50,358 nucleotides of DNA from Candidatus Saccharimonadia bacterium (GTDB lineage: Bacteria; Patescibacteriota; Saccharimonadia; CAILAD01; BJGX01). Shown piece after piece: positions 8,916-46,935 of the stretch. The stretch is from positions 1 to 50,358 of the forward strand of contig JBCLLP010000002.1 of the NCBI GenBank assembly GCA_039738615.1. Reading direction: 5' to 3'. Both the position numbers and the translations under genes were made by a program. The notes below the pieces were generated by a model. That model searched no databases. It worked only from the letters and a program-made list of their open reading frames with translations, and was not told the origin of the DNA. Position 1 is the first letter of the stretch. Each line of letters opens with the position of its first letter.

Positions 8916-8923
8916 CTAGATTG

Positions 8924-9541: not shown

Positions 9542-9552
9542 ATAGAGTGAAG

Positions 9553-24326: not shown

Positions 24327-24335
24327 GTGCTAGCA

Positions 24336-28472: not shown

Positions 28473-28613
28473 ATTTTAATATCCTGACATTCGCCCTAAT
28501 TATAGCATTTTTATAAGCTAAAGAGCTACTGGTATTCTTACGCAGAAGCATATGTACTATAATTATAAAAGCGTATGGGGTATAATAAAATTTATATTAA
28601 GAGAGGGTAGAAA

Positions 28614-29654
28614 GTGGATAATCATAATCACACCAATCGTTCGGATGCTAGCCATATCACAAGTACGGCCAGGACTATTGATACCAATTCACCCCAGAAG
28701 CCACTCATGCCTAAGCGAGGCAAGCAGGGGCTTAAGATATTCGTAGTTGTACTATTGCTAGCAGGGCTAGTGGCTGGCGGGGTGTATTTATTTACACAAC
28801 GAAAGTCTAATCAGAAGAACACACTCTCTAATAAGAGTGTGTACGATGAAGCCATCAAATCTTACAATAGCTTCCCCGGTGTAAGTAATCTTTCTACTGA
28901 GGATAGAGCAAAGCTAGATGCCGAAATACAGCCCCAGTACTTGGCCGGGTATGTTACGGGCTTTGGCCCTAATGCAAATGAGATAAGTACCGCCCCAGGT
29001 GTTATTGGCAATACTGCTGCCCCAGCTACCATAAGTGCCTATATACAAAGCATAATCAACAATAAGACTCAGCTCGCCAAGACTACTGGCTACTACCAAG
29101 GCTATGTATTTTATTTTTGGTATGACGACGCCCCCACCGCAAGCACGGTGGAGCAAGTGCCGAATACGATCCAGCCAGCCGTAGTGCCGAATACGATTCA
29201 GCCAGCCGTAGTAATAGCAGATAAGCAGTATGCCAGCCAAAAGGCCAAAGAGTACCAGCAGAAGTTGGCTAATGGTAGTATTACTCCTCAAAAAGCGGCC
29301 GATGAGCTTTTGCTAGATAGGCGACTGGCATTATTCGATCAGTCTAATAATTCGGGATATTTTGCTACCGCCCTGCCGCTCGGTGCTAGCGGTAGTTTGA
29401 TTCATGAAATAGCCAAGCTCGCAGGCGAAACCAACCCTGGGCAAGGTGACTCTACTAATAATATGCTCAGTAATGCCAGAGGGCCTGGGCTTACAGCATT
29501 AGCCACCATCAACGCAGTGCCTGGGGGGCCGGCTAGTGGCATTAAAAAAGAAGTAGGATTTATGATGGCGTATCTAGATCTAGTGCTGAAGGGGCAGGGT
29601 TCGATAGATAGATACCAATCGGAGCTAAATATAGCCAAGGCTAAACTCCAATGA
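28614..29654 (+). CDS. Hypothetical membrane-anchored protein (copy 1)
   Basis: GTG start with SD GAGAGGG 6 nt upstream, one TM (IFVVVLLLAGLVAGGVYLF), an internal VPNTIQPAV x2 repeat, and an ATGA overlap with the next gene. I recognise no family. Confidence 0.6.
   Translation: MDNHNHTNRSDASHITSTARTIDTNSPQKPLMPKRGKQGLKIFVVVLLLAGLVAGGVYLFTQRKSNQKNTLSNKSVYDEAIKSYNSFPGVSNLSTEDRAKLDAEIQPQYLAGYVTGFGPNANEISTAPGVIGNTAAPATISAYIQSIINNKTQLAKTTGYYQGYVFYFWYDDAPTASTVEQVPNTIQPAVVPNTIQPAVVIADKQYASQKAKEYQQKLANGSITPQKAADELLLDRRLALFDQSNNSGYFATALPLGASGSLIHEIAKLAGETNPGQGDSTNNMLSNARGPGLTALATINAVPGGPASGIKKEVGFMMAYLDLVLKGQGSIDRYQSELNIAKAKLQ
29157..29210 (+). repeat. 27-bp tandem duplication (2 units, 1 mismatch) inside the 346-aa gene
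   Basis: gtgccgaatacgatccagccagccgta / gtgccgaatacgattcagccagccgta. Confidence 0.9.
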
Positions 29655-31984
29655 TGAAGTACCGAAGCCTAAAAGCCCTCTTAGTGGCAGGCCTTAGTAT
29701 AGCTGTGTTTTTTGTTTTTAGCGGCCAGGCCCTGGCCTATACACCGAACGATTTATCGGTTTTTACAGGCTTTAGAGGTCTTGGCTCCACTACTTCCACA
29801 CCAGTAGATGTAGGTGGCTCGGCTGAGGTAGTGCCTGTACCTGGTTTGATACCCTTACAGGCCGCCCCGTATTATGGTAATCATTTCGATAACGATCATA
29901 ATAATTCGCCAGATGCCAATTCAGTCATGTGGGGTACTAGTGGTAATTTTTATAATCTCGCCTCGTGGTACAAGCCTCCGTTCATATGGTGCGGCGCGGC
30001 CGGAGGCTGGCCTTATGGCCTAACGATCAAGGTTTCGGCACTATTCCAGCATGGCACCTGGCTAAATGGAGCCAATAAATTAACAGTAGGGGGGGTAGTA
30101 AAGAATGGTTACTGGGTAGGTGAATGGTGGAGGCAGGCCAACGACGGCTCAGGCTGGGTGGGACATAAAACAGCCTTCTCTGGCCCTAGCACCCAGATTT
30201 TAGCACTCAATCCAGGCCTTATGGTTGTCATATTTACCTTTATCGAAACCCCTCCCCCACCAACCTACGCTGGTACTATTCAAATCGAAAAGCACCTAGT
30301 ACCTGGGGATAATTATCCATCGCCAGGCAGTCCGCCCTATAACGCTAAGGTCGGCATAACAAATAATATCAACAGCTGGAACCCACAGAGCACTAGCAAT
30401 CCTTATAGTCATCCTGGAATATGGGTAGACCCCCAAGATCCGTACTCTAATTCCCAGCGGGCTGGTACTACAGGAAGCTATAACACCTGGGTGGATGTAC
30501 CGGCTGGTTATGAGGTTGACACATACACGGTAGCTGGCTCACCCAGTCCACAGGACCACAGGACTATGATCTGCACAGGGGCTAATAATACTGGTAGATG
30601 CAAGGTAAATGCCATTAGAGTCAGCAATAATGCCACTACCACCGTTAAGTTTAATTTAAGGCAAGCCTCCAAAGGTTTAGTTGTTTGCCGAAAGGGTGTT
30701 GACTCCTCTGGTACTGCTAATGGCCGTTTCTATTGGGAAGGCTATGGCATAGACGCCAGTAACCAAGCCAATGCCCCAGTTGTTAAGCTCTATCAAGGCT
30801 CTACATTACTCCAGACTATAGCTGGTAATCGGCAACTCCCCAATAATACTACCTATACCAGTAATAATACTACCTATCCGGGGATGCTAGCCACCACTAA
30901 TTATGATTTCATGGTAGATCTAGATAGTGTTTTCCATGATGGCAGGACGCGTAGCATTACCCCCAAGCTAGTTACCGCTGTAGGAACTGACCTAACACTT
31001 CCTAATGTCAGTATTGGGGGGAGTACGGACGTCTGTGGTGGGGGCACACCTACTTTTGCTTGGGCTTGGCCGTGGCTTCGGACTAGCCGGGGAGATGTAA
31101 TTGCTAGCGGGCAAATAAACGGTCAAGTTACTAGCCCTGATGGTACTACTTACCTCGGAGCTAGGCCTGCTACTGCCACCAATAAAGAAGCCGAGTTTCT
31201 GATAATTTCTGCCGTGGGTAATGGCGGGCCATTTTGTAGCACCTATAATTATATCCTTACCAATATTACTGCTACTACTGCCGAGGGCTGTGGTAATGGC
31301 GCAGGCTATAGCATCCTCAACAGCTACCCACTAAATAGTGGCGGCAATGATGTAATTGTTGAGGGAGTTAAGAAGGCCTATGACACATTTAGCAAAGCCG
31401 ATCCTATTTGCTCGGCGGATAAAACTACTGCTGAGTTGGCTACTATAACTGTACTACCCGGCTGTGGGGATGGCGTCGTGTATAAGCTTACTGGTGGAAA
31501 CACCCTTAGCAATTCCATCAATGTAACTAAAGGTCGGGTCACTATCTATGTTGAAGGAGATCTTTACATTAATGCCAATATTATTTATAGTCCTGCTGGC
31601 ATCACAAATATTAAAGATTACCCCAACCTAGCGATAGTGGTTAGGGGTAATGTCAATATTGCTAGTAGTGTAGCTAATATTTCGGCCCTAATATATGCCT
31701 CTGGCAAAATTGACACTTGTGCCACAGCCTCAGCCCCTAGCCCCACCCAAAATTGTTTTACTAGGCTCAGTGTAGATGGCTCACTAATAGCCAAGAGTGG
31801 TATAAGATTTGGAAGGTCGTATTATGATAGCAACATGTTGGGCGAGCGCCTCTCAGCCGAATACATTGCTCTTACGCCCCAAACCTTCGTATACCCAGCC
31901 CCCGGCATAGATCGTCAGTCTGCTTTTAGTCAGCAAGAGGGCTCATATACCCTTGATCCCGGGGAATACAACCCTAGATTCTAG
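29651..31984 (+). CDS. Large secreted protein of unknown function (copy 1), adhesin-like
   Basis: Sec signal peptide (KALLVAGLSIAVFFVFSGQALA|YT). G/N/T/W-rich, with a PPPP linker then GTIQIEK...TTTVKFNL (Ig-like/CnaB-like by eye). The C-terminal part looks like a beta-helix (VTIYVEGDLYINANIIYS...LAIVVRGNVNIASSVANISALIYASG). Confidence 0.7.
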   Translation: MMKYRSLKALLVAGLSIAVFFVFSGQALAYTPNDLSVFTGFRGLGSTTSTPVDVGGSAEVVPVPGLIPLQAAPYYGNHFDNDHNNSPDANSVMWGTSGNFYNLASWYKPPFIWCGAAGGWPYGLTIKVSALFQHGTWLNGANKLTVGGVVKNGYWVGEWWRQANDGSGWVGHKTAFSGPSTQILALNPGLMVVIFTFIETPPPPTYAGTIQIEKHLVPGDNYPSPGSPPYNAKVGITNNINSWNPQSTSNPYSHPGIWVDPQDPYSNSQRAGTTGSYNTWVDVPAGYEVDTYTVAGSPSPQDHRTMICTGANNTGRCKVNAIRVSNNATTTVKFNLRQASKGLVVCRKGVDSSGTANGRFYWEGYGIDASNQANAPVVKLYQGSTLLQTIAGNRQLPNNTTYTSNNTTYPGMLATTNYDFMVDLDSVFHDGRTRSITPKLVTAVGTDLTLPNVSIGGSTDVCGGGTPTFAWAWPWLRTSRGDVIASGQINGQVTSPDGTTYLGARPATATNKEAEFLIISAVGNGGPFCSTYNYILTNITATTAEGCGNGAGYSILNSYPLNSGGNDVIVEGVKKAYDTFSKADPICSADKTTAELATITVLPGCGDGVVYKLTGGNTLSNSINVTKGRVTIYVEGDLYINANIIYSPAGITNIKDYPNLAIVVRGNVNIASSVANISALIYASGKIDTCATASAPSPTQNCFTRLSVDGSLIAKSGIRFGRSYYDSNMLGERLSAEYIALTPQTFVYPAPGIDRQSAFSQQEGSYTLDPGEYNPRF

Positions 31985-32109
31985 GGGCTAAACCTGCCGA
32001 TAAAAGAAATAGTAGAACACTATAATGATGCAGTTTACCTGCTAAATTATAATATAAATACCAGCATTGCATCACAGTTTGATAGTAGCTATAAATAGCC
32101 TTTTACTTT

Positions 32110-32129
32110 GTAGCACTAAGTAGCACTAA
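32110..32129 (+). repeat. Perfect 10-bp tandem direct repeat upstream of pilM
   Basis: gtagcactaa gtagcactaa, ~55 nt upstream of the pilM ATG. Confidence 0.7.
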
Positions 32130-32182
32130 AATTCTTATGCGAAATGTTAATATAATGATTAGTCTTATGCTAAAATTAGGTT

Positions 32183-33229
32183 ATGGAATCGTTTAATCAA
32201 GAACAGAATTATTTCGGTCTTGATTTGGGAAACAGCAGTATTAAGGTTGCTCAGGTTAGAGAACTTCGAGGTCGCCCAACTCTAATTACCTATGGGGATA
32301 TTGATATGCCCGAAAACCTTCTATCTAGTGATTCACCAATCGATCAAGATAGGGTAGCAGAATATGTAAGAAAGCTGGCTAGCGACGCTAATGTTACTAG
32401 CAAAAATGTAATAGCAGCTTTGCCCTCGGTGGCATCATATACTGCAATTATTAAAACCCCCAAGCTACCCCTAAAGGAACTAGGGGAGAGTATTAAGTAC
32501 CAAGCAGACAAATATATACCTATGTCACTTGATGACGTAAAGCTTGACTGGGCAGTTATAGGAGAGGACCCCAACTCAGACCAGCTTGATATACTACTAG
32601 TGGCGGCACCTAATAACATTGCCAATAAGTATCTTAATATTATCCAAAAAGCTGGCTTTGAACTGCTTAGCCTTGAAATTAATGCTCTAGCGTTGGCTAG
32701 ATCACTAACTCAGCCAGCCCAGGCCAAGACGACAGTTATGGTTGTAGATATAGGCACTATGGCCAGTGATATTGCGATTTTTACGGGTGAAGTACCGCAG
32801 ATAGTTCGGTCTGTAGGCGTAGGATCCAAGGCTATACGAAGGGTTATATCTCAAAACCTAGGCCTAGATATGACGCAAGCTGATCAGTTTATGAAAAAGT
32901 TTGGTTTGCAGGAAGATAAAATTGAGGGGCAGGTATTTAAGACCATTAAGCCCGTGATAGACCATATAGTCGAGGAAATCAAAAAGTCCATAGCTTTCTA
33001 TACTGAGCGTAATCCCGAGTCAAAGACCGAAAAACTAATTCTTACTGGTGGCACATCGGCATTACCCAATTTAGCCGTCTATATTGCCAATTCTACCCAG
33101 CTCACGGTAGAGATAGGCAACCCCTGGGTAAATATTAGCTATCCCTCAAACCTACAGGAGAGTATATCTATACTTAGCTTAAATTACGCAACAGCATTAG
33201 GCCTAGCACTTAGGAACTTTAGCAAATGA
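32183..33229 (+). CDS. pilM: Type IV pilus assembly protein PilM (actin-like ATPase fold)
   Basis: FGLDLGNSSIKVAQV..., ...VVDIGTMASDIAIF..., ILTGGTSALPNL, and its position before pilN. Confidence 0.85.
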   Translation: MESFNQEQNYFGLDLGNSSIKVAQVRELRGRPTLITYGDIDMPENLLSSDSPIDQDRVAEYVRKLASDANVTSKNVIAALPSVASYTAIIKTPKLPLKELGESIKYQADKYIPMSLDDVKLDWAVIGEDPNSDQLDILLVAAPNNIANKYLNIIQKAGFELLSLEINALALARSLTQPAQAKTTVMVVDIGTMASDIAIFTGEVPQIVRSVGVGSKAIRRVISQNLGLDMTQADQFMKKFGLQEDKIEGQVFKTIKPVIDHIVEEIKKSIAFYTERNPESKTEKLILTGGTSALPNLAVYIANSTQLTVEIGNPWVNISYPSNLQESISILSLNYATALGLALRNFSK

Positions 33230-33828
33230 GTATCCTAATTAATTTATTACCAGAAGCCCGGCTAGCTAAGCTCAGGAATCAATCCAGGAAAAGATTTTAT
33301 ACTACTATAGCTATAGTAAGTACAGGAAGTGTAGCTACAGTCGTAATTACATTTTTACTATTTTTGGGTTTTTTGAATGCAACTTATCTAATCAATGAGT
33401 CCAGGCTTAACGATCTAAATCAAGAAATATCAAAAAACAAGGACCTAGAACAAAAAGCGGCAACTCTGCAAGCTAACCTTCAGGAATTTACTATTTTGAA
33501 TCAAAAAAGGACATACCCCACCAGAATTTATAAGAATTTATATGAAGCAACACCAGACAATGTAAAAATAACTAGCATACAAGTTAATGTAGATGGCAAG
33601 ATTACAATTTCGGGCACCACTAATTCTTTTGCTGATGTAGGTAGGTATAAAGAGATACTATTAAGCTATAATGTTAACTATAAACTCCAGCCAAATCTTG
33701 ACCGCTCAGCAATTTTTACATCTGTCGAGATTAAATCTGCCTCGCCAAATATAGCTACAGGTACAGTGACCTTTTCATTAGATGTAACTGTAGATCAAAA
33801 GGTACTTGCTAAACAGGTAGGAAAATAA
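33226..33828 (+). CDS. pilN: PilN-like pilus assembly protein
   Basis: N-terminal INLLP motif (MSILINLLPEARL), a single TM, then a coiled coil. ATGA overlap with pilM. Confidence 0.75.
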   Translation: MSILINLLPEARLAKLRNQSRKRFYTTIAIVSTGSVATVVITFLLFLGFLNATYLINESRLNDLNQEISKNKDLEQKAATLQANLQEFTILNQKRTYPTRIYKNLYEATPDNVKITSIQVNVDGKITISGTTNSFADVGRYKEILLSYNVNYKLQPNLDRSAIFTSVEIKSASPNIATGTVTFSLDVTVDQKVLAKQVGK

Positions 33829-33829
33829 T

Positions 33830-34519
33830 ATGACAGATTTAGACCCCAACATTAAACCCAAGGCTAACCCCACTAAGAAGCACCCTGTGGTGCCGATGAC
33901 TGAGGTTTCTATGGAGCAAGATAAATCAACCCGAAATTATCTAATTACCGTAATTTTGATAATTTTTATAGTTGTTCTGGCGGGTGGCATAGCTATATAT
34001 TGGCTGTGGGGAGCCTTTAGCCTTCAAACCTATAAAAATAAGGCGCAGGATCAAACTATAGGGCTATTAGAGCAAAAAAAGAAGGATTTAGTTCAACTTA
34101 AGCCTAACTACGATAAATTAATATTACCTGGCTTTGAGGGAAAGTCTACCCAAGATCAAATACTCATTGCTGTACCTACCAATGATGCTTTTGCAGAGCT
34201 ACTTGCTATGGTTGAGCGTATGGGTAATGAGTCAAATGTAAAGATAACTAGCATCACCAGGGGGGGCGTACCTACTATAGCTACTAAAGCTAATGCTGGA
34301 GGGGTTAGTTCTTATAGCATTACCATAGCTATGGAAGGCACACGGGGAACAGTACAAGATTTCCTTGCCAAAACAGAGGATTCGGCTAGGGTGCTAGATT
34401 TTATTAGTATTAGCTACGGCGATGACATGAGGGACCAAAAAATTACTGCAGATACTTCATTTATGGTATATTTCCAAGGCCCTGCCAATATTAGCCCAAC
34501 TACAAAGGAACTGCAATGA
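33830..34519 (+). CDS. PilO-like pilus assembly protein
   Basis: Single TM, a coiled coil and a C-terminal alpha/beta region, in the PilO position. The assignment rests on architecture and context. Confidence 0.5.
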   Translation: MTDLDPNIKPKANPTKKHPVVPMTEVSMEQDKSTRNYLITVILIIFIVVLAGGIAIYWLWGAFSLQTYKNKAQDQTIGLLEQKKKDLVQLKPNYDKLILPGFEGKSTQDQILIAVPTNDAFAELLAMVERMGNESNVKITSITRGGVPTIATKANAGGVSSYSITIAMEGTRGTVQDFLAKTEDSARVLDFISISYGDDMRDQKITADTSFMVYFQGPANISPTTKELQ

Positions 34520-34797
34520 ATAAAAAAACAATAACCACTATTATCATATCTGTAGCAATTTTTGTATTAGCGGTCGCGCTTTTATATAGATACTTAATCC
34601 CTCCATCTAAGGGTAGCGGTGTACAGGTCACAATCCCACATCCTGTCAATCCTAATTTCAATCAAGAAGAAATTGATACCCTCAAGAAAACTAAGTTTTA
34701 TGATGTCAATATAAAGCCAACTACCTATAATACTATTAATAGTAAATCCACTATCGCCCTATCAGCAAGAGAGATTTCTGCGCAAATCAGGAGTTAG
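34516..34797 (+). CDS. Small single-TM protein in the pil operon
   Basis: ATGA overlap with the upstream gene and an N-terminal TM (TIIISVAIFVLAVALLY). No family recognised. Confidence 0.45.
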   Translation: MNKKTITTIIISVAIFVLAVALLYRYLIPPSKGSGVQVTIPHPVNPNFNQEEIDTLKKTKFYDVNIKPTTYNTINSKSTIALSAREISAQIRS

Positions 34798-34799
34798 CT

Positions 34800-36599
34800 A
34801 TGATATTATCGGCCGATACAGAACGCAAAATTGAACAGATAATTGCTCAGCAGGGAATACTTACAGCTGATAATTTAGAGCTTGCCAAGCTTGATGCCCT
34901 AAAGCAAAATGTAAGCCTACTTCAGCTATTGGTAAGCCGAGGTACTCTTAAAGAAGACGATGCTACTAAGCTTATGGCAATGAGCTCTAATATTCCTTAT
35001 GTAGATTTAACAAAGATATCTATTCCTAGCTCAACACTAGCTATCATCCCCCGCGATATAGCTGAATCATTTATGTCTGTTGCTTTTGGCTTAGTAGATG
35101 GCAAGCTTAATGTGGCTAGCCTGGACCCTCAAAACCTTCAAGCAGTTGATTTTTTATCCCGTAAAACAGGCTATACCATTAACGCCTATATGGCATCTAA
35201 GAGCCAAATAGAAAAATGGATATCAAGCTACACCTCTAATTTAGCAGAAGATGTAGAGCAAGCCTTGGGTGTTGACGAAGAAAAAACCGAAGAAAAGCAT
35301 AACTTTATCATAGATTTTAATAAGCCTAAAAAGAATAACCCAAAAAGTATTGAAACGATTATTCAAGACGCCCCCATAACTAAAGCCCTCAACACCATAT
35401 TTGAATACGCAATCGGCTCTAAAGCCTCCGATATACATATTGAGCCACAAGAAAAATCAGTCAAAATTAGATTTAGGGTAGATGGCTTACTGCGGGAAGT
35501 TATGAGCTTACCTAAAGTCACTGAGGCGGCTTTAGTATCTAGGATTAAGATTTTATCTAATCTAAAAATAGATGAGCACCGTATACCTCAAGATGGGCAG
35601 GCGCAGTACCGCACATCTGGCAAGGAAGTAGATATGCGTATTACTATTGCTCCCATATCCTATGGCGAACAAATTGTAATTAGGCTTCTGGATAAGTCCG
35701 AGGGCATATTTGACATTGATGCCTTGGGTTTCAGGGGTAGGTCGGCTAGACTCCTTAAGAAAGCCATTACTAAGCCCTATGGAATGATACTTTCTACTGG
35801 CCCAACAGGCTCGGGTAAGTCCACCACCCTCTATGCTATTATCCAGAGCATTAAAAACAGTCAAATCAACATAGTAACACTAGAGGACCCTGTAGAGTAC
35901 CAGATGCCTGGTATTAATCAAATGCAAGTTAATAATGCCGTGGGCCTGACTTTTGCTAATGGACTTCGTTCGATACTACGCCAAGACCCTAATGTGATAA
36001 TGGTTGGTGAGATTCGTGATCACGAAACTGCCGATTTGGCTGTGCAGTCTTCTCTTACGGGTCACTTAGTACTCTCCACTTTACACACCAACTCTGCGGC
36101 TGGGGTATTGCCCAGACTCTTAGATATGGGCATAGAGCCCTTCCTAATTGCCTCTACGATCAATGTAGTTATGGGTCAAAGGTTAGTCCGTAAGGTTTGT
36201 GAAAAATGTCGGAAGCCATTTCAGTCTAGCGAAGCTGCAACTATAATGATAAATAAGCAAATAGGGCATTTACTGCCTCAAACAGAACAAGAAATAAAAA
36301 AAGTTTCAGATGACTTTGGCTTTGATAGCTTGCCAATCTTTAGTCAAAAAGCTTATACTTTGTATGAGGGGGAAGGATGTAGTGATTGCACCGATGGCTA
36401 TAAGGGTAGAGTCGGCATATACGAGATATTTGAGCTTAATAAACAAATAGAACAATTACTATTAAAACAAGCCACATCTAGTATTATTCAGCATCAGGCA
36501 CAGCAGGACGGTATGCTCACCATGCAGCAAGATGGCTTGATGAAAGTGCTTATAGGTATTACTACTATTAAAGAAGTAGCAAGGGTATCGGCGGATTAA
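34800..36599 (+). CDS. pilB: Type IV pilus extension ATPase PilB (GspE family)
   Basis: N-terminal GspE_N-like domain, Walker A (STGPTGSGKSTTLY), Asp box, Walker B (IMVGEIRD), His box (GHLVLSTLHTN), and a tetra-Cys motif (CEKC...CSDC). Confidence 0.92.
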   Translation: MILSADTERKIEQIIAQQGILTADNLELAKLDALKQNVSLLQLLVSRGTLKEDDATKLMAMSSNIPYVDLTKISIPSSTLAIIPRDIAESFMSVAFGLVDGKLNVASLDPQNLQAVDFLSRKTGYTINAYMASKSQIEKWISSYTSNLAEDVEQALGVDEEKTEEKHNFIIDFNKPKKNNPKSIETIIQDAPITKALNTIFEYAIGSKASDIHIEPQEKSVKIRFRVDGLLREVMSLPKVTEAALVSRIKILSNLKIDEHRIPQDGQAQYRTSGKEVDMRITIAPISYGEQIVIRLLDKSEGIFDIDALGFRGRSARLLKKAITKPYGMILSTGPTGSGKSTTLYAIIQSIKNSQINIVTLEDPVEYQMPGINQMQVNNAVGLTFANGLRSILRQDPNVIMVGEIRDHETADLAVQSSLTGHLVLSTLHTNSAAGVLPRLLDMGIEPFLIASTINVVMGQRLVRKVCEKCRKPFQSSEAATIMINKQIGHLLPQTEQEIKKVSDDFGFDSLPIFSQKAYTLYEGEGCSDCTDGYKGRVGIYEIFELNKQIEQLLLKQATSSIIQHQAQQDGMLTMQQDGLMKVLIGITTIKEVARVSAD

Positions 36600-36603
36600 C
36601 AAT

Positions 36604-37686: not shown

Positions 37687-37693
37687 AACCAAG

Positions 37694-38950: not shown

Positions 38951-39038
38951 CCATTGACTACTATATTAGTAGTGTAGTATCTTAGAGCATAAGGGGAATA
39001 ATACAATAGTAATTATAAATAATAAATTAAGGAGAAGA

Positions 39039-39509
39039 ATGAAGAATAGAATTAATAAGGGCTTTACAATAATAGAAGTTATAATAGTACTAGTGATAGC
39101 TGCGATTATTATGCTGTTGGTGTTTTTGGTAGTACCACAATTGCAGCGAACAGCGCGTAATACAAGAACGCAGGGTGATGCTAGGAGAGTACTAGCTGCT
39201 GCAGAGACTTTTGCAGCTAATAATGCCGGGACTTATCCCAGCTGTAGTGTTGCTGGGCCATACAATACTGCTTGCGCAACTTTAATGGCTGTTACGGGCA
39301 ATGTACTCGCACCTAATGGTGTCAGCTATGCTGTTACTATCACCGCCGGCGTCATACCAGCCCTTAACGGTATGGTGATACTAGGTGGTGCCACCGGTTC
39401 TTGTCCTACCACTAGTAGTACTCCTGCTACTGGTTCTAGATTTGTCGTTGCTGTGGCCCAAGAAACCGCTGATGCTACTACTCAAACTTCATTCTGTTTG
39501 AGTAGTTAG
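39039..39509 (+). CDS. pilA: Major type IV pilin
   Basis: Class III signal MKNRINKG|FTIIEVIIVLVIAAIIML with Glu at +5. Strong SD AAGGAGA, C-terminal Cys pairs, and a terminator downstream. Confidence 0.85.
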   Translation: MKNRINKGFTIIEVIIVLVIAAIIMLLVFLVVPQLQRTARNTRTQGDARRVLAAAETFAANNAGTYPSCSVAGPYNTACATLMAVTGNVLAPNGVSYAVTITAGVIPALNGMVILGGATGSCPTTSSTPATGSRFVVAVAQETADATTQTSFCLSS

Positions 39510-39567
39510 CTACGAGCTTTATCTTTAGTCCTCCGCCCTATCCCCAGTAGCTACCGGCTAGGTATTA

Positions 39568-39592
39568 AAAGCCCCTCATCCAAGGGCTTTTT
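39568..39592 (+). terminator. Probable terminator after pilA
   Basis: aaaagccc-ctcatccaa-gggcttttt is a short GC core plus a T tract. Confidence 0.45.
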
Positions 39593-39613
39593 GGGTTATA
39601 GCCACTTTGGGTT

Positions 39614-39619
39614 TAATAT
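39614..39619 (+). promoter_or_regulatory. -10-like TAATAT, 6 nt before the pilD ATG (leaderless-type)
   Basis: gtTTAATATaaaactATG. Confidence 0.3.
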
Positions 39620-39625
39620 AAAACT

Positions 39626-40411
39626 ATGGAAATAACAATAATGACTATAATGTTTGGATTCTGGGGCCTAGTGCTGGGTAGCTTTATTAACGCTTGGGTA
39701 TGGCGCACCCACAAGGGCTTATCGGTGGCCAAGGGGCGCTCCAAATGCCCCAGCTGTAAGCACCCACTAGCTTGGTATGATCTAGTACCAGTTATGAGCT
39801 ATATTGTGCTGCGTGGTAAGTGTCGGTACTGTGCAGGGCCTATTAGCATTGCTTATCCGCTGGTAGAGGTAAGCACGGGGCTGTTATTTGGGCTATTATA
39901 CTGGTGCTTGGTACCGATAGGGCTCTACGGCTGGGCTCAATTTATCATTCTGCTTATTGCTAGCGTGCTACTGGTGGCTAGCTTCGTATACGATGGCTTA
40001 TATATGGAACTACCCGAAAAATATATGCTACCCGCTATAACACTCGGAATGTTATCGCTAGGGTTAAAGGCTTTGCAGGGTGGCTGGGATAGTCTTATAC
40101 CCCAGTTGGCAATGCTGGCGGTGATCGTGCTGGCCTACACCGGGCTATGGTACTTTAGCCGTGGTAAGTGGCTAGGGGCAGGGGATATTCGCTTGGTGGC
40201 TATTATGGGGCTGTTCTTGGAGCCTAAAGCACTTGTGGTGGGGCTATTTGCCTCTTATATTCTAGGCGCTGTATATGGGCTCTATGTACTTAGCAGATCA
40301 CCTATCAAGCGGGGTGTTAAGGTGCCTTTTGGGCCGTTTTTGATAATTGGATTTTATATTGGCCTGCTATATGGGCTAGCCTTGGCCAACTGGTATTTAG
40401 GATATTTATAA
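39626..40411 (+). CDS. pilD: Prepilin peptidase / N-methyltransferase PilD (A24 family)
   Basis: CPSCKHPLAWYDLVPV...GKCRYCAGPIS zinc motif, a polytopic membrane protein, and catalytic Asp regions (...YDGLYMELP..., LGAGDIRL). Confidence 0.9.
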   Translation: MEITIMTIMFGFWGLVLGSFINAWVWRTHKGLSVAKGRSKCPSCKHPLAWYDLVPVMSYIVLRGKCRYCAGPISIAYPLVEVSTGLLFGLLYWCLVPIGLYGWAQFIILLIASVLLVASFVYDGLYMELPEKYMLPAITLGMLSLGLKALQGGWDSLIPQLAMLAVIVLAYTGLWYFSRGKWLGAGDIRLVAIMGLFLEPKALVVGLFASYILGAVYGLYVLSRSPIKRGVKVPFGPFLIIGFYIGLLYGLALANWYLGYL

Positions 40412-40429
40412 AACCCCTAGTATAAGTGT

Positions 40430-40435
40430 TATAAT
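40430..40435 (+). promoter_or_regulatory. Extended -10 (TGtTATAAT), 7 nt before the minor-pilin ATG (leaderless-type)
   Basis: agTGtTATAATataatctATG. Confidence 0.4.
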
Positions 40436-40442
40436 ATAATCT

Positions 40443-41135
40443 ATGCTAAGAGGCATCAAGAACACTAGGCCCGGCCTGGCTATAATAGAAGTCATAATGG
40501 TAATGGTTATATCAGGCTTACTGTTTATTATTGCTATTGGTGTATTTAATAGCCGTAAGGGCATTGAGGCCAGTGATTCACCCCGGCAGGTAATGAGCGA
40601 GATTGCCAGAGTCCGTACCGATGCCCAGCAGGGTCTGGGGGCTACTCCTCCTCATGATACTAGCAATCTATTGGGTAAGGAAATATTTGGAGTGGCAATA
40701 CAATTTAATGGCACCAAGATGACTGTCTATAAGCTTGCTCAATCACGCACTACCCCATACTCCATCTCGGCTTATGAATCTTATGACATAGCTATGCCAT
40801 ACCAGCTCAAGTGGGATAATAACCCTAGCTATAATCTTAATAACTATGGCCCTAGCTATAATAATACTAACATATCTACTATACCAGGCTATGCTATGGG
40901 CGATCTAGTTACTCTAGTCTTTAAAAACAGGACTGGCCAGAGCTACGCCTTTACGGCACCTGGTAGTGGGATTGGTGGGGCAAGCAGTATTGCTAACTAT
41001 ACTATTATTGACAGACAGGGCAATCTCAAAATGGCTTTTTATTTGGGTAGTGCTCCTGTATCGGCAACCAAGCAGTACTATGTTAATTTTGATTTAGCCA
41101 CTCCCAACAACCAATCCCTCAAGGTGGTCAAATGA
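40443..41135 (+). CDS. Minor (pseudo)pilin
   Basis: Prepilin-type N-terminus TRPG|LAIIEVIMVMVISGLL with Glu +5. Confidence 0.7.
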   Translation: MLRGIKNTRPGLAIIEVIMVMVISGLLFIIAIGVFNSRKGIEASDSPRQVMSEIARVRTDAQQGLGATPPHDTSNLLGKEIFGVAIQFNGTKMTVYKLAQSRTTPYSISAYESYDIAMPYQLKWDNNPSYNLNNYGPSYNNTNISTIPGYAMGDLVTLVFKNRTGQSYAFTAPGSGIGGASSIANYTIIDRQGNLKMAFYLGSAPVSATKQYYVNFDLATPNNQSLKVVK

Positions 41136-41680
41136 GTATTACCAGACGGGGAGACACACTGATAGAGGTAATGTTTGCTTTTGCAATCCTTAGTGCAATT
41201 ATAGCAGTGTCGTTCTCGGGGGCTATGAATAGCTACAAAGCATCTCTATCGGCCCAGAACGAAACTCAAGCTAGCTTTGTGGCGCAATACCAGGCAGATG
41301 CACTTAAGGCCTATCGTGATTCGCTGGAGTGGAACTACGCTGAAGCTCCATCATTTTTAACTGGGTATAGCACATCCTCCCCACCCCTCCCAGCTATGGG
41401 TAGCTACATTACTACTACCCCCCCTACTCCGTTTTGTATGCAATATCAACCTTCCGGTGCATCCTGGAAAGTTATAAAAGCCGACCTCCCCGCCGCCGAC
41501 TGCAATCTTTTAGTCCAGACTCTCGCCCCCCAGCTTGGCAGCTCGGCTACCCTCGCCATTACCCTTACTGGTGATGCTACTAATGGAGTGTATGCTAGCA
41601 TTAAGGTTACTTGGCGTCCCCGTAATTCCCTCATCGATCAAAATGTTACCAATACTATATTATTAACCAAAGACCGATGA
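41132..41680 (+). CDS. Minor (pseudo)pilin
   Basis: Prepilin-type N-terminus ITRRG|DTLIEVMFAFAILSAI with Glu +5. ATGA overlap with the upstream gene. Confidence 0.7.
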   Translation: MSITRRGDTLIEVMFAFAILSAIIAVSFSGAMNSYKASLSAQNETQASFVAQYQADALKAYRDSLEWNYAEAPSFLTGYSTSSPPLPAMGSYITTTPPTPFCMQYQPSGASWKVIKADLPAADCNLLVQTLAPQLGSSATLAITLTGDATNGVYASIKVTWRPRNSLIDQNVTNTILLTKDR

Positions 41681-42306
41681 AGCTAAGAACCCACCACCAG
41701 CCCGGCTTTACCTTTGTAGAACTTCTGCTGGCAATAGTTATTATGGGAGTTATGCTTGCTATTGCTATGACTACAGTTGTGGGTATGATGCGCTTTTATG
41801 TATTTGCCAGCCATGTCAGACAGAATCAAGAAAACGGCCGTAATGTGCTAGATAGTATTGCCCGCGATATTCGCTATGGGAAGCTAATACTTCCCAGCGC
41901 TTCCGCCCCCAACAACTCTAATGTTGTATGCTCGTATAATCCTACCACTAAGACACTTATAAAATATGAGCAGTCTGGTACTACTATTGTAAAGAATGAG
42001 TACACTTATCCAGGTTCTGCTACCCCCGGCACATGCGCCACGGGCACATCAGATAATCTCACGCTCTCCACAAACTCCCCCCAGACTATCAGCCTAGACA
42101 ATATGTATATTCTCGCAGGAACCGCCGGCTTTAGGGTAACTCGCACCATTGGCTCAAGCCCATCTGCATATACAGATGTTGTGGCGGTAATTATTAAGTT
42201 TAGCTTCATCACAGGCACCCTTGATACTACTGTAGGTTGTGCCGCTAACAATATTTACTGCGGGGAGCTAGAGCTCATTACCGTTGTAAACATAAGAGGT
42301 AAATAA
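41677..42306 (+). CDS. Minor (pseudo)pilin
   Basis: Prepilin-type N-terminus HHQPG|FTFVELLLAIVIMGVML with Glu +5. ATGA overlap. Confidence 0.7.
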   Translation: MKLRTHHQPGFTFVELLLAIVIMGVMLAIAMTTVVGMMRFYVFASHVRQNQENGRNVLDSIARDIRYGKLILPSASAPNNSNVVCSYNPTTKTLIKYEQSGTTIVKNEYTYPGSATPGTCATGTSDNLTLSTNSPQTISLDNMYILAGTAGFRVTRTIGSSPSAYTDVVAVIIKFSFITGTLDTTVGCAANNIYCGELELITVVNIRGK

Positions 42307-42332
42307 AATGTTTTTAATACTTGGAAAGGTGG

Positions 42333-42338
42333 TATAAT
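42333..42338 (+). promoter_or_regulatory. -10 box TATAAT, 6 nt before the ATG at 42345 (leaderless-type)
   Basis: ggtggTATAATaaaattATG. Confidence 0.4.
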
Positions 42339-42344
42339 AAAATT

Positions 42345-43472
42345 ATGAAAATTCTTATGGGTAGAGTCATTAGTAAAAAACAAGCTGGCGTAACTTCACT
42401 GCTATTGGTGTTGGCCATAGGGCTAATCTTAACAATTATGGTAGCTGGTATATCTGCCCTTAGTATTAGGGAGCAGCAGCAAGCTCGCAAAACCGACCTA
42501 AGCTCTAGGGCCTTACAGGCTGCCGAGGCAGGAGTAAAGCTGGCCGTGGCGAAGCTTAGCGTTACCCCTACATATTCTAAGCCAGGCTGTTCTACTGTTA
42601 CTGGTGATACGACCTTTAGTGTTGATGACTCCCTCGGCGTTAACGCTAGCATTACTTGTGCTACCGTTACTAGCGCTTTTACTGGTGCCTATGAAGGCTA
42701 TTTATCGCAGGATAGAGCCATACAGGTGTTTGCTGGGCCATCTTATCCAGGTCCAGGTGGTGCTCCTGCTGGACCACCGCCTAGCTATCTTAACCTTCAG
42801 TGGCACACTCTCCAGGACGGAGTATTACCATCACCTACTACCAGCATTTTGTACCCCACAGTCACTGACCCTGACTATATTGCCGCTGCTAGCATTGAGA
42901 TGACCGTAATATATTGGCCTGGAACAGGAACAATAGGTACAGGTAGTATCAAATCAGCCACAATATTCTTCGTGCCTGGCACAATTGATAAAGGGTTTTC
43001 AGCTATGGGTGGGAGAACAACGCCAGTTGATAATAAATGCACAGGCACTACTTACAAGTGTGCCACCACTAAAGCCATAGTTAGTAGCGTAGTCCAAAAT
43101 GGATTTGATTTGAGAGGGGCGCTGGGCTTAACAACTGATGCTACTTATAACTCATATAATATGGTAATACGAATTAAGCCACGGTATAGCGACACCCATT
43201 TTAGTTTGAGCTTTTTTAATAGTGTAGGCGTGGTTGTACCTATACAAAGTACTAGTGCCCAAATAGATGTGACTGCTAAGGTAGATAACTTGTATCGGCG
43301 CGTAAAGGCCGAAAAGCTAATTTACTCGGTTGCTATAGAAAATGTACTTGACTCAGTCGTGTATACAGGCAAGGGAGATAATGATGCTACTAATTATAAT
43401 ATTTGTAAGCAAATGATTATAAATGCTAGCGACAAAGTTTTGGTGCCTACTTCGCCAGTGTGTGCCTTTTAG
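42345..43472 (+). CDS. PilX/GspK-like large minor pilin (no Glu +5)
   Basis: KKQAG|VTSLLLVLAIGLILTIMVAGISALSIREQQQARK matches the PilX N-terminal pattern. I prefer the ATG at 42345 over the TTG at 42321. Confidence 0.6.
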   Translation: MKILMGRVISKKQAGVTSLLLVLAIGLILTIMVAGISALSIREQQQARKTDLSSRALQAAEAGVKLAVAKLSVTPTYSKPGCSTVTGDTTFSVDDSLGVNASITCATVTSAFTGAYEGYLSQDRAIQVFAGPSYPGPGGAPAGPPPSYLNLQWHTLQDGVLPSPTTSILYPTVTDPDYIAAASIEMTVIYWPGTGTIGTGSIKSATIFFVPGTIDKGFSAMGGRTTPVDNKCTGTTYKCATTKAIVSSVVQNGFDLRGALGLTTDATYNSYNMVIRIKPRYSDTHFSLSFFNSVGVVVPIQSTSAQIDVTAKVDNLYRRVKAEKLIYSVAIENVLDSVVYTGKGDNDATNYNICKQMIINASDKVLVPTSPVCAF

Positions 43473-43517
43473 TTTTGTATGGGGTATAATAAAATTTATA
43501 TTAAGAGAGGGTAGAAA

Positions 43518-44558
43518 GTGGATAATCATAATCACACCAATCGTTCGGATGCTAGCCATATCACAAGTACGGCCAGGACTATTGATACCAATTCACCCCA
43601 GAAGCCACTCATGCCTAAGCGAGGCAAGCAGGGGCTTAAGATATTCGTAGTTGTACTATTGCTAGCAGGGCTAGTGGCTGGCGGGGTGTATTTATTTACA
43701 CAACGAAAGTCTAATCAGAAGAACACACTCTCTAATAAGAGTGTGTACGATGAAGCCATCAAATCTTACAATAGCTTCCCCGGTGTAAGTAATCTTTCTA
43801 CTGAGGATAGAGCAAAGCTAGATGCCGAAATACAGCCCCAGTACTTGGCCGGGTATGTTACGGGCTTTGGCCCTAATGCAAATGAGATAAGTACCGCCCC
43901 AGGTGTTATTGGCAATACTGCTGCCCCAGCTACCATAAGTGCCTATATACAAAGCATAATCAACAATAAGACTCAGCTCGCCAAGACTACTGGCTACTAC
44001 CAAGGCTATGTATTTTATTTTTGGTATGACGACGCCCCCACCGCAAGCACGGTGGAGCAAGTGCCGAATACGATCCAGCCAGCCGTAGTGCCGAATACGA
44101 TTCAGCCAGCCGTAGTAATAGCAGATAAGCAGTATGCCAGCCAAAAGGCCAAAGAGTACCAGCAGAAGTTGGCTAATGGTAGTATTACTCCTCAAAAAGC
44201 GGCCGATGAGCTTTTGCTAGATAGGCGACTGGCATTATTCGATCAGTCTAATAATTCGGGATATTTTGCTACCGCCCTGCCGCTCGGTGCTAGCGGTAGT
44301 TTGATTCATGAAATAGCCAAGCTCGCAGGCGAAACCAACCCTGGGCAAGGTGACTCTACTAATAATATGCTCAGTAATGCCAGAGGGCCTGGGCTTACAG
44401 CATTAGCCACCATCAACGCAGTGCCTGGGGGGCCGGCTAGTGGCATTAAAAAAGAAGTAGGATTTATGATGGCGTATCTAGATCTAGTGCTGAAGGGGCA
44501 GGGTTCGATAGATAGATACCAATCGGAGCTAAATATAGCCAAGGCTAAACTCCAATGA
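43518..44558 (+). CDS. Hypothetical membrane-anchored protein (copy 2, identical to 28614-29654)
   Basis: The ORF-track translation is identical, 346/346. Confidence 0.6.
   Translation: MDNHNHTNRSDASHITSTARTIDTNSPQKPLMPKRGKQGLKIFVVVLLLAGLVAGGVYLFTQRKSNQKNTLSNKSVYDEAIKSYNSFPGVSNLSTEDRAKLDAEIQPQYLAGYVTGFGPNANEISTAPGVIGNTAAPATISAYIQSIINNKTQLAKTTGYYQGYVFYFWYDDAPTASTVEQVPNTIQPAVVPNTIQPAVVIADKQYASQKAKEYQQKLANGSITPQKAADELLLDRRLALFDQSNNSGYFATALPLGASGSLIHEIAKLAGETNPGQGDSTNNMLSNARGPGLTALATINAVPGGPASGIKKEVGFMMAYLDLVLKGQGSIDRYQSELNIAKAKLQ
44061..44114 (+). repeat. 27-bp tandem duplication (copy in R2)
   Basis: Same two units as 29157-29210. Confidence 0.9.
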
Positions 44559-46888
44559 TGAAGTACCGAAGCCTAAAAGCCCTCTTAGTGGCAGGCCTTA
44601 GTATAGCTGTGTTTTTTGTTTTTAGCGGCCAGGCCCTGGCCTATACACCGAACGATTTATCGGTTTTTACAGGCTTTAGAGGTCTTGGCTCCACTACTTC
44701 CACACCAGTAGATGTAGGTGGCTCGGCTGAGGTAGTGCCTGTACCTGGTTTGATACCCTTACAGGCCGCCCCGTATTATGGTAATCATTTCGATAACGAT
44801 CATAATAATTCGCCAGATGCCAATTCAGTCATGTGGGGTACTAGTGGTAATTTTTATAATCTCGCCTCGTGGTACAAGCCTCCGTTCATATGGTGCGGCG
44901 CGGCCGGAGGCTGGCCTTATGGCCTAACGATCAAGGTTTCGGCACTATTCCAGCATGGCACCTGGCTAAATGGAGCCAATAAATTAACAGTAGGGGGGGT
45001 AGTAAAGAATGGTTACTGGGTAGGTGAATGGTGGAGGCAGGCCAACGACGGCTCAGGCTGGGTGGGACATAAAACAGCCTTCTCTGGCCCTAGCACCCAG
45101 ATTTTAGCACTCAATCCAGGCCTTATGGTTGTCATATTTACCTTTATCGAAACCCCTCCCCCACCAACCTACGCTGGTACTATTCAAATCGAAAAGCACC
45201 TAGTACCTGGGGATAATTATCCATCGCCAGGCAGTCCGCCCTATAACGCTAAGGTCGGCATAACAAATAATATCAACAGCTGGAACCCACAGAGCACTAG
45301 CAATCCTTATAGTCATCCTGGAATATGGGTAGACCCCCAAGATCCGTACTCTAATTCCCAGCGGGCTGGTACTACAGGAAGCTATAACACCTGGGTGGAT
45401 GTACCGGCTGGTTATGAGGTTGACACATACACGGTAGCTGGCTCACCCAGTCCACAGGACCACAGGACTATGATCTGCACAGGGGCTAATAATACTGGTA
45501 GATGCAAGGTAAATGCCATTAGAGTCAGCAATAATGCCACTACCACCGTTAAGTTTAATTTAAGGCAAGCCTCCAAAGGTTTAGTTGTTTGCCGAAAGGG
45601 TGTTGACTCCTCTGGTACTGCTAATGGCCGTTTCTATTGGGAAGGCTATGGCATAGACGCCAGTAACCAAGCCAATGCCCCAGTTGTTAAGCTCTATCAA
45701 GGCTCTACATTACTCCAGACTATAGCTGGTAATCGGCAACTCCCCAATAATACTACCTATACCAGTAATAATACTACCTATCCGGGGATGCTAGCCACCA
45801 CTAATTATGATTTCATGGTAGATCTAGATAGTGTTTTCCATGATGGCAGGACGCGTAGCATTACCCCCAAGCTAGTTACCGCTGTAGGAACTGACCTAAC
45901 ACTTCCTAATGTCAGTATTGGGGGGAGTACGGACGTCTGTGGTGGGGGCACACCTACTTTTGCTTGGGCTTGGCCGTGGCTTCGGACTAGCCGGGGAGAT
46001 GTAATTGCTAGCGGGCAAATAAACGGTCAAGTTACTAGCCCTGATGGTACTACTTACCTCGGAGCTAGGCCTGCTACTGCCACCAATAAAGAAGCCGAGT
46101 TTCTGATAATTTCTGCCGTGGGTAATGGCGGGCCATTTTGTAGCACCTATAATTATATCCTTACCAATATTACTGCTACTACTGCCGAGGGCTGTGGTAA
46201 TGGCGCAGGCTATAGCATCCTCAACAGCTACCCACTAAATAGTGGCGGCAATGATGTAATTGTTGAGGGAGTTAAGAAGGCCTATGACACATTTAGCAAA
46301 GCCGATCCTATTTGCTCGGCGGATAAAACTACTGCTGAGTTGGCTACTATAACTGTACTACCCGGCTGTGGGGATGGCGTCGTGTATAAGCTTACTGGTG
46401 GAAACACCCTTAGCAATTCCATCAATGTAACTAAAGGTCGGGTCACTATCTATGTTGAAGGAGATCTTTACATTAATGCCAATATTATTTATAGTCCTGC
46501 TGGCATCACAAATATTAAAGATTACCCCAACCTAGCGATAGTGGTTAGGGGTAATGTCAATATTGCTAGTAGTGTAGCTAATATTTCGGCCCTAATATAT
46601 GCCTCTGGCAAAATTGACACTTGTGCCACAGCCTCAGCCCCTAGCCCCACCCAAAATTGTTTTACTAGGCTCAGTGTAGATGGCTCACTAATAGCCAAGA
46701 GTGGTATAAGATTTGGAAGGTCGTATTATGATAGCAACATGTTGGGCGAGCGCCTCTCAGCCGAACATATTGCTCTTACGCCCCAAACCTTCGTATACCC
46801 AGCCCCCGGTATAGATCGTCAGTCTGCTTTTAGTCAGCAAGAGGGCTCATATACCCTTGATCCCGGGGAATACAACCCTAGATTCTAG
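44555..46888 (+). CDS. Large secreted protein of unknown function (copy 2; one substitution, Y to H, near the C-terminus)
   Basis: 776/777 identical to copy 1 (SAEYIALTPQ versus SAEHIALTPQ). Confidence 0.7.
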   Translation: MMKYRSLKALLVAGLSIAVFFVFSGQALAYTPNDLSVFTGFRGLGSTTSTPVDVGGSAEVVPVPGLIPLQAAPYYGNHFDNDHNNSPDANSVMWGTSGNFYNLASWYKPPFIWCGAAGGWPYGLTIKVSALFQHGTWLNGANKLTVGGVVKNGYWVGEWWRQANDGSGWVGHKTAFSGPSTQILALNPGLMVVIFTFIETPPPPTYAGTIQIEKHLVPGDNYPSPGSPPYNAKVGITNNINSWNPQSTSNPYSHPGIWVDPQDPYSNSQRAGTTGSYNTWVDVPAGYEVDTYTVAGSPSPQDHRTMICTGANNTGRCKVNAIRVSNNATTTVKFNLRQASKGLVVCRKGVDSSGTANGRFYWEGYGIDASNQANAPVVKLYQGSTLLQTIAGNRQLPNNTTYTSNNTTYPGMLATTNYDFMVDLDSVFHDGRTRSITPKLVTAVGTDLTLPNVSIGGSTDVCGGGTPTFAWAWPWLRTSRGDVIASGQINGQVTSPDGTTYLGARPATATNKEAEFLIISAVGNGGPFCSTYNYILTNITATTAEGCGNGAGYSILNSYPLNSGGNDVIVEGVKKAYDTFSKADPICSADKTTAELATITVLPGCGDGVVYKLTGGNTLSNSINVTKGRVTIYVEGDLYINANIIYSPAGITNIKDYPNLAIVVRGNVNIASSVANISALIYASGKIDTCATASAPSPTQNCFTRLSVDGSLIAKSGIRFGRSYYDSNMLGERLSAEHIALTPQTFVYPAPGIDRQSAFSQQEGSYTLDPGEYNPRF

Positions 46889-46935
46889 GGGCCTTCAAAT
46901 ATAAATAAGCCACATTGGCAATTATATAAGGATAT

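Follow-up and report, generated by a model that had tools for sequence, protein, structure and literature searches.

Long direct repeats, such as those that insertion sequences (IS) or ribosomal RNA (rrn) operons form on both sides of a chromosomal segment in enterobacteria, are familiar substrates of RecA-mediated deletion or tandem amplification. Pilus-associated genes can themselves be repeated, as in Neisseria, which possesses the adhesin paralogs pilC1 and pilC2 and in which gene conversion between pilE and pilS involves silent promoterless cassettes and a G-quadruplex (G4) or small RNA (sRNA) initiator. RecA-dependent conversion is further known to homogenise the dispersed copies of tufA and tufB in Salmonella and of the rRNA operons (PMC5485169, PMC8022953, PMC6053082). 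Here we describe two direct repeats around the type IV pilus (T4P) genes of a Candidatus Saccharimonadia bacterium (assembly GCA_039738615.1, contig JBCLLP010000002.1, positions 1 to 50,358; this whole stretch of 50,358 nucleotides is called the window). The repeated unit is a promoter plus a two-gene surface-protein cassette (genes A and B) that belongs to the T4P locus. One copy, R1, lies between ychF and pilM, and the other, R2, between a PilX-like gene and a xer-type recombinase gene. We consider it probable, though by some way not certain, that the xer-side slot has recently been taken over by the ychF-side type through RecA-type gene conversion or cassette replacement.

The window resembles the tufA/tufB and rRNA systems in that its dispersed copies are far more alike than the orthologs are (99.9% against at most 82% nucleotide identity), in that identity is confined to the homologous unit, and in that recA is present. 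The difference concerns the kind of gene, as those systems homogenise conserved housekeeping genes, whereas the cassette holds fast-evolving, lineage-restricted surface-protein genes with an unrelated core in relatives. Homogenisation in the window would also be an occasional replacement of a whole cassette rather than long-term maintenance, and the copies of relatives stay divergent. The likeness to the pilus families of Neisseria is a loose one and consists of linkage to pilus genes, variability, multiple copies, and conserved segments that flank variable ones. However, silent cassettes, a G4 or sRNA initiator and signs of high-frequency programmed variation are absent from the window, in which both copies are full length and carry a promoter, and the PilC/PilY1 domain is absent from B. 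Finally, direct repeats of 3.4 kb at a distance of 14.9 kb are a textbook substrate for the rearrangements known from IS- or rrn-flanked segments, but these repeats are neither IS nor rrn, the genes between them are probably essential, and no rearranged products have been seen.

A literature search has retrieved no report of gene conversion or of the A/B cassette in Saccharibacteria. We regard the event as ordinary homogenisation of paralogs, its target being a surface-protein module linked to the pilus genes that is uncharacterised and potentially interesting, and not as a mobile element; the finding offers nothing in favour of a novel type of genetic switch. If the repeat is real, an ultra-small genome of the Candidate Phyla Radiation would provide a clean case of concerted evolution or of the replacement of a cassette, which would imply that homologous recombination actively reshapes surface-protein genes beside an essential pilus machine. 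The hypervariable two-gene module is a candidate for what sets the host or surface specificity of uncultured freshwater Saccharibacteria. In practical terms, the locus is a hotspot of mis-assembly and contig breaks in metagenome-assembled genomes (MAGs).

Anatomy of the repeat pair

A preliminary description of the window, made from its letters, had reported a pair of long direct repeats with unrelated flanks, and a computed comparison at the offset of 14904 agrees with it: R1 (28573-31988) and R2 (43477-46892) run in the same direction over 3416 bp with 3 mismatches and 0 indels, i.e., they are 99.9% identical (0.09% divergence). The identity begins with GTATGGGGTATAAT, 8 nt upstream of TATAAT, and ends with CTAGGGGC, 4 nt past the stop codon. 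None of the four flanks is related to its counterpart, and the junctions of R2 read TTTTAGTTTT followed by GTATGGGG on the left and CTAGGGGC followed by CTTCAAAT on the right. The mismatches (31862 T/C, 31864 C/T and 31906 C/T) lie 127, 125 and 83 bp from the 3' flank, which leaves an interior of 3289 bp without any difference. Further statements of the preliminary description have been borne out as well, namely that each copy has a TATAAT element, a Shine-Dalgarno (SD) sequence, a GTG start and two overlapping genes (346 aa and 777 aa), that the translations are identical at 346/346 and 776/777 positions (the one difference being Y738H), that the 13-gene pil cluster lies between the copies, and that recA is intact (full length, 23253-24326, with recX downstream). 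Besides R1/R2, the window contains no repeat family of 40 nt or longer, and no inverted repeats of 40 nt or longer. For comparison, 33 loci of relatives (L001-L033) have been fetched and the window proteins have been mapped onto them. The features of the repeats are as follows.

28573..31988, + strand: R1, the cassette copy in the ychF-pilM slot (ancestral); collinear upstream with L002, L032 and L033, in a slot that relatives fill too
43477..46892, + strand: R2, the cassette copy in the PilX-like/xer slot (derived); the slot is filled in L001 and L028 and empty in L029, L030 and L031
31862..31906, + strand: the three R1/R2 differences, all at most 127 bp from the 3' end, with the amino-acid effect Y738H
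28581..28613, + strand (R2 equivalent 43485-43517): 5' control segment, comprising TATAAT, a short leader and an SD-like GAGAGGG, followed by the GTG start
28614..29654, + strand (R1; 43518-44558 in R2): gene A, 346 aa, with a cytoplasmic N-tail, one transmembrane (TM) helix and an ectodomain
29651..31984, + strand (R1; 44555-46888 in R2): gene B, 777 aa, secreted; the copies differ by Y738H
28750..30250, + strand (R2: 43650-45150): hypervariable core of ~1.5 kb, formed by the ectodomain of A and the N-terminal ~200 aa of B, as seen in identity profiles against L001 and L002 and in domain-wise identities

The core is enclosed by two conserved ends, of which the 5' one (~130 bp) comprises the promoter, the ribosome-binding site and the N-tail of A, and the 3' one (~1-1.7 kb) the C-terminal domain of B. 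The control segment, with TATAAT at 28581-28586 (R1) and 43485-43490 (R2), is near-identical across cassette types and in both slots, as found in the window, L002 (two cassettes), L032, L001 and L028; a generic sigma-70 scan made no call on it, and a -35 match is absent. Against the cassettes of L001, L002 and L032, that of the window is at most 82% identical in nucleotides at the conserved ends, and its core is either unrelated or ~40-58% identical. The GC content of the cassette (0.47-0.49 at 29000-32000 and 44000-46000) exceeds both the average of the window (~0.43) and the values of the pil cluster (0.37-0.46), which may simply reflect a secreted protein rich in Gly, Ala, Pro and Thr.

The two cassette slots and the origin of R2

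The ychF-side position is widely occupied. Immediately ahead of pilM, and inside the ychF-pilM gap wherever a contig extends to ychF, an A/B cassette is found in L003/L004, L006, L008, L009, L011, L012, L013, L021, L022, L025, L026 and L032, and L002, L010, L024 and L033 show ychF followed by a cassette, with contigs that stop short of pilM. The region upstream of R1 is itself collinear with L002, L032 and L033. Because relatives regularly carry the cassette upstream of pilM, comparison of these loci identifies it as the unit with which the T4P locus of this clade regularly begins, and R1 as the copy in the ancestral position. Copy number at this slot varies, with two cassettes in tandem in L002, the order B-A-B in L008, and two B-like genes in L012 and L025. 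No pil gene occurs within 10 kb of the more distant B C-domain homologs that animal-associated Saccharibacteria carry (L014-L019). Of the independent MAG contigs with a B homolog, about half start or end inside the A/B cassette (L002, L008, L009, L010, L011, L013, L024, L028 and L033), which suggests repeats or strain heterogeneity at the cassette in many genomes; given this frequency of breaks, the locus is evidently hard to assemble.

The xer-side slot is occupied in fewer genomes. In L001, from GCA_039738655.1, the PilX-like gene is followed by a short A (181 aa), a B (826 aa) and xer, and the ychF contig of the same genome (L032) has ychF, a fused A'B' open reading frame (ORF) of 1132 aa and then pilM to pilC, so that the genome has the cassette-pil-cassette layout of the window. 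Its two cassettes are strongly diverged, being alignable over the 5' 128 bp at 75% and over ~1 kb at the 3' end at 78%, with an unrelated core between. In L028 (GCA_039738595.1) the PilX-like gene is followed by a short A of 177 aa and then by a B at the contig end. No cassette fills the slot in L029 (from the genome of L002), L030 (on the contig of L003) and L031, where convergent xer comes directly after the PilX-like gene. The empty site of L029 (~5600-5640) forms a perfect hairpin with a 17-bp stem (TAGAACACATTCCAGGG / CCCTGGAATGTGTTCTA) between the two convergent genes, and the window has lost this hairpin. The left junction TTTAGTTTT, a derived form, is common to the window, L001 and L028, and reads TTTAGAACACA at the empty site of L029.

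Because both slots of GCA_039738655.1 are filled with strongly diverged copies and the slot of L028 is filled as well, the cassette-pil-cassette layout predates the genome in the window, and the identity of R1 and R2 alone is recent. The xer-side cassette of L001 is followed by ~75 bp homologous to the flank downstream of R1 (upstream of pilM) in the window and L032, and the insertion carries TAGAACACA on both sides (4690-4720 and 7840-7850). As judged from this flank and these brackets, the xer-side cassette is a copy of the ychF-side one, taken together with its 3' flank. The second slot would have arisen in an ancestor common with at least two other sequenced genomes, probably by duplication of the ychF-side cassette and some downstream flank. 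For this, one may envisage that cassette and pil genes were first duplicated in tandem as one unit and that the superfluous pil copy was later lost. The preliminary description had offered a recent segmental duplication as one origin of the repeats; the duplicated unit, a promoter plus two genes, stands, whereas the recency applies to the identity and not to the layout, which is old (GCA_039738655.1, GCA_039738595.1).

That the identity itself is recent follows from the flanking genes of the window, which are 82-93% identical in nucleotides to those of relatives, yet R1 and R2 differ by 0.09%. The two copies thus stand at 99.9% against at most 82% at the ends when compared with the cassettes of relatives, and the same paralogous positions in GCA_039738655.1 hold diverged copies. 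In addition, R2 bears the marks of the ychF-side type. Its promoter variant GTATGGGGTATAAT recurs at the ychF side of L002, L003, L008 and L032, whereas ACACAC(G/T)G(T/G)TATAAT is the form in the xer-side cassettes of L001 and L028; its A gene is of the long, ychF-side kind (346 aa), the A genes of xer-side L001 and L028 encoding 177-181 aa; and its B has the canonical N-domain, again a ychF-side trait. On the basis of these three traits, the simplest reading, in which we place moderate confidence, is that an R1-type cassette replaced the prior occupant of R2. In the window, R2 would then have been recently overwritten by the canonical, long-A cassette through homologous recombination anchored in the conserved cassette ends, that is, by RecA-dependent gene conversion, with either the genome itself or imported DNA as the template. 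RecA and RecX are full length in the window, and Saccharibacteria are naturally competent. The outcome would be two 99.9% identical copies around the pil genes, the A-B-A layout being a by-product of paralog turnover rather than a pilus-switching device. The concentration of the three differences at one end might be taken for the end of a conversion tract ((127/3416)^3, P ~5e-5 if random), but this argument has been set aside, as a k-mer assembler would keep just the variants linked to unique flank. Aligned with L001 and L002, the three differences are uninformative on the direction of conversion.

Several points weigh against a replacement of R2. The left edge of identity extends 8 nt (GTATGGGG) beyond the homology that can be recognised between R1-type and L001/L028-type cassettes, and R2 is without the 75-bp flank seen in L001; because of this overhang and this missing flank, the state of R2 before conversion has to be postulated. 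The middle of the window B is nearer to the xer-side B of L001 (72%) than to the ychF-side B of L032 and L002 (37-63%), and the history of donor and recipient may comprise more than one event. Housekeeping genes give no clean branching order for the window, L001, L028 and L029, and both a single gain of the xer-side cassette and a gain with subsequent loss fit. The identity of the repeat interior is that of the assembled contig, and the functions of A and B are deduced from weak signals. What has been observed directly are the repeat with its genes, the two slots among relatives, the diverged paralogs of one relative and the mosaicism, whereas the mechanism and direction of conversion, like those functions, are inferred.

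The repeat exists in the sequence and probably in the genome as well. In a de Bruijn or k-mer graph, the arrangement ychF-R-pil-R-xer is a simple loop, and a single repeat node of a short-read graph could have been written twice, in which case isolated interior variants would be lost and those chained to unique flank would survive. The real xer-side cassette may then have no more than its ends in common with R1 and differ in its core, as it does in relatives, or the junction pairs may come from different strains of the sample. Such an artefact would fit the exact identity of the 3289-bp interior and the chaining of all differences within 127 bp of unique flank, where a k-mer graph can phase them; moreover, the contigs of the closest relatives have SPAdes-style names (Node_.._length_.._cov_..), making short-read assembly plausible for the window, and breaks inside the cassette affect about half of the related MAG contigs. 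However, all four junction types have been seen independently in other assemblies, and the R1-type promoter variant abuts the unique flank of R2 within a few bases, which makes the 5' edge of R2 truly R1-like. No differences occur within 127 bp of the 5' junction either, as expected for real near-identity, and a protein database contains no second B-like protein (an orphan core) from the source of the contig, a point of little weight. The positions of the three differences are consistent with an artefact and with a true duplication alike. We hold an artefact to be unlikely, if not to be neglected.

A different history would be a recent de novo segmental duplication of R1 into the gap between the PilX-like gene and xer, independent of the cassettes of L001 and L028, for instance by a 14.9-kb tandem duplication and subsequent loss of the second pil copy. 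Duplications do recur in the cassette family, the identity runs 8 nt past the recognisable homology between the R1 and R2 types, and the junctions of the window are unlike those of L001 and L028, the left one being without TATAACACAC and the right one without the 75-bp pilM-upstream segment and TAGAACACATT. Against this, the derived left junction TTTAGTTTT is that of L001 and L028 and not that of the empty site, and the same slot has been used in three genomes. Furthermore, the identity starts and stops where the cassette itself does as a functional and homologous unit, at the promoter and 4 nt beyond the stop codon; conversion between homologs is expected to give such edges, whereas an illegitimate event would hit them by chance. 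An independent duplication thus seems quite improbable to us, and a replacement within a slot that already existed remains preferred.

The preliminary description had further offered a Campbell-type integration of a circular cassette-plus-pil element as a possible origin of the layout, and had named the repeats as substrates for a RecA-mediated deletion or amplification that could switch the pili ON and OFF or alter their dosage. The topology is formally that of an R-plus-pil circle integrated into a resident R, recA is intact, and a tyrosine recombinase gene abuts R2. Yet in every relative examined the pil cluster keeps its place between ychF and xer-gidA, with or without a second cassette, and xer adjoins empty slots too. 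Searches for plasmid and phage similarity with the cassette gave no match, no transposase or integrase was found, and the unit contains no mobility genes. An integrated mobile element has accordingly been rejected as a candidate, given the synteny of the pil cluster in all relatives, the presence of xer at empty slots and the lack of mobility functions among the bracketed genes, as has a composite transposon or IS-flanked segment, since neither A nor B holds a transposase and inverted repeats of at least 40 nt are missing. Deletion or amplification through the repeats is possible in principle with an intact recA, but no product of either has been seen in any relative, and the expected ychF-cassette-xer deletion product occurs in no relative examined.

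The idea of a switch is also at odds with what is known of the pili. The pilus locus of the window has the composition of 'locus one' of TM7x (pilB, pilT, pilC, pilMNO, pilD and five pilins), which makes an essential thick pilus and whose pilins could not be deleted (PMC11623550). In S. epibionticum, most T4P genes belong to the class I essential genes (PMC10633639). The equivalent T4P locus containing pilT and pilD is essential in the cultured Saccharibacteria N. lyticus TM7x and S. epibionticum (PMC11623550, PMC10633639). Because of this essentiality, a deletion of the pil locus would most likely be lethal, a dead end for an obligate epibiont rather than an OFF phase. We accordingly regard Campbell-type integration, or programmed excision and amplification as a pilus switch, as highly improbable, and neither finds support here.

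The cassette proteins and their variation

Both proteins belong to small families. Gene A encodes a single-pass membrane protein with a conserved cytoplasmic tail of 35-40 residues (VDNHNHTNRSDASHITSTARTI...), and gene B a protein with a Sec-type signal peptide, a variable N-domain of ~200 aa, a beta-rich middle and a conserved C-terminal domain of ~300 aa. Scans of A and B against Pfam, NCBIfam, PHROG and PADLOC gave no significant match, and Pfam, NCBIfam and PHROG detected no transposase or integrase domain in either. Six clusters of B homologs have been found among 5.8 billion proteins and 39 cluster representatives of A among 1.84 billion; a further homology search with the B alignment added 0 new sequences, and an exact-protein look-up of both B variants returned no record. 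Every identifiable source of the two families is a MAG of Saccharibacteria/Saccharimonadia, and as far as these searches reach, the families are tiny and restricted to Saccharibacteria.

Pairs of a foldase and its client (PrsA/SurA/PpiD) and modules of a phage tail fibre and its chaperone offer a parallel for A, which is likewise membrane-anchored, of helical plus alpha/beta structure, placed directly upstream of B, co-varying with the variable domain of B and fused to it in some genomes. The similarity to PrsA/SurA stays below significance, however (Foldseek E ~0.3, and a sub-cut-off SurA_N_3 match in a variant only). An AlphaFold2 (AF2) model of A built from 31 homologs reaches a pLDDT of 82, and its top four Foldseek matches are all to PrsA 6vj2, none of them significant (E ~0.3, TM at most 0.22). 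The variant A' of L002 matches SurA_N_3 at E 1e-4 (22.7 bits, under the cut-off of 27.2) and Rotamase_2 at E 0.03; the A of the window matches neither, no catalytic parvulin motif has been demonstrated in A, and a profile of the A family against PDB sequences gave TM-helix noise at most. On these signals, A is possibly a PrsA/SurA-like extracytoplasmic foldase or partner, which is to be taken as a lead only.

For B, the AF2 model (7 sequences) is poor, with a pLDDT of 46, and its weak fold matches to immunoglobulin-like sortase pilins of Gram-positive bacteria (E of 0.03 or higher) are uninformative; a profile of its C-domain against PDB sequences retrieved nothing. B is probably an adhesin-like large secreted protein. 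PilY1/PilC tip adhesins have a C-terminal beta-propeller (Pfam Neisseria_PilC) and often an N-terminal vWA domain. An assignment of B to this class has been rejected, as no Pfam or NCBIfam match was obtained at E of 1e-3 or lower and Neisseria_PilC remained without a match. The window B ends in ...EYNPRF, and E(Y/F)xPR(F/Y)-COOH terminates every B homolog, including the distant ones of animal-associated Saccharibacteria away from pil genes; this C-terminus may be a sorting or anchoring signal. The codons for P-R-F-stop in the window (31972-31986 and 46876-46890) form the palindrome CCCTAGATTCTAGGG.

The A ectodomain and the B N-domain co-vary among relatives, and a single ORF encodes both proteins in L032 (6450-9848, - strand, 1132 aa) and also in L002 (3945-6395), where the A-part of the fused ORF gives weak SurA_N_3 and Rotamase_2 signals. 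The co-variation and, by Rosetta-stone reasoning, the fusions suggest a joint action of A and B. Other members of the cassette family also show patches of homogenisation and a mosaic of domains: the tandem B genes of L008 are 98.9% identical over 922 bp and different elsewhere, and the two cassettes of L002 have 149 bp in common at 96%. The window B itself has its nearest relatives in different places, with the N-domain closest to L003/L008 (50-52%), the middle to the xer-side B of L001 (72%) and the C-end to L032 (86%). We tentatively put forward that environmental Saccharibacteria could possess in the A/B cassette a hitherto undescribed module for host recognition, coupled to the pilus locus, in which a variable, binding B N-domain goes together with the co-varying ectodomain of a dedicated partner or foldase A, and in which the conserved ends serve as handles that let whole cores swap between two or more chromosomal slots and, via natural transformation, between cells. 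Should this guess hold, the window might present a fresh cassette replacement, and the second slot might serve to store or to express alternative specificities.

The pilus locus and its neighbourhood

The genes around and between the two cassettes are listed below.

32183..43472, + strand: 13-gene type IV pilus cluster (pilM to PilX-like), synteny conserved in relatives
27399..28472, - strand: ychF, left anchor of the conserved synteny, identified by family matches and the synteny of relatives
46936..47844, - strand: Xer-type tyrosine recombinase, right anchor, present beside empty R2 slots too
23253..24953, + strand: recA-recX, full length

The bracketed ORFs are pilM, pilN, a gene in the position of PilO, a 93-aa ORF, pilB, pilT, pilC, a pilin gene, pilD, three minor-pilin-like genes (two of the three with the N_methyl motif) and a PilX-like gene of 383 aa, the label of which has been taken from the names of its homologs. 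All 13 are pilus genes or without a family match, and mobility functions are absent from them. To the right of xer lies mnmG/gidA; because xer also adjoins empty R2 slots, it is not associated with the cassette. Rfam and tRNA scans of the window returned nothing, which leaves it without a tRNA-type integration site. Between RNase J and ftsK, a low-GC stretch contains an ORF of 269 aa without a Pfam match (18459-19268, - strand).

Within the pil cluster, the major pilin is only 37% identical between the window (39039-39509) and L001 (296-790), compared with 88% for the neighbouring pilD, and is a second hypervariable spot of the locus. The assembly of GCA_039738655.1 breaks between pilC and this pilin gene. 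In the same genome, the stretch of L001 from xer to gidA contains a Y1 transposase gene of the IS200/IS605 type (9001-9612), enclosed by perfect direct repeats of 132 bp (8862-8993 and 9543-9674), an insertion that is absent from the window. In freshwater relatives, the intergenic regions around pilD contain repeats of ~200-260 bp with 77-86% identity, both direct and inverted (L003 19617-19839, 20868-21061 and 21253-21478; L022 12172-12428 and 13392-13653), which may represent an element resembling a miniature inverted-repeat transposable element (MITE).

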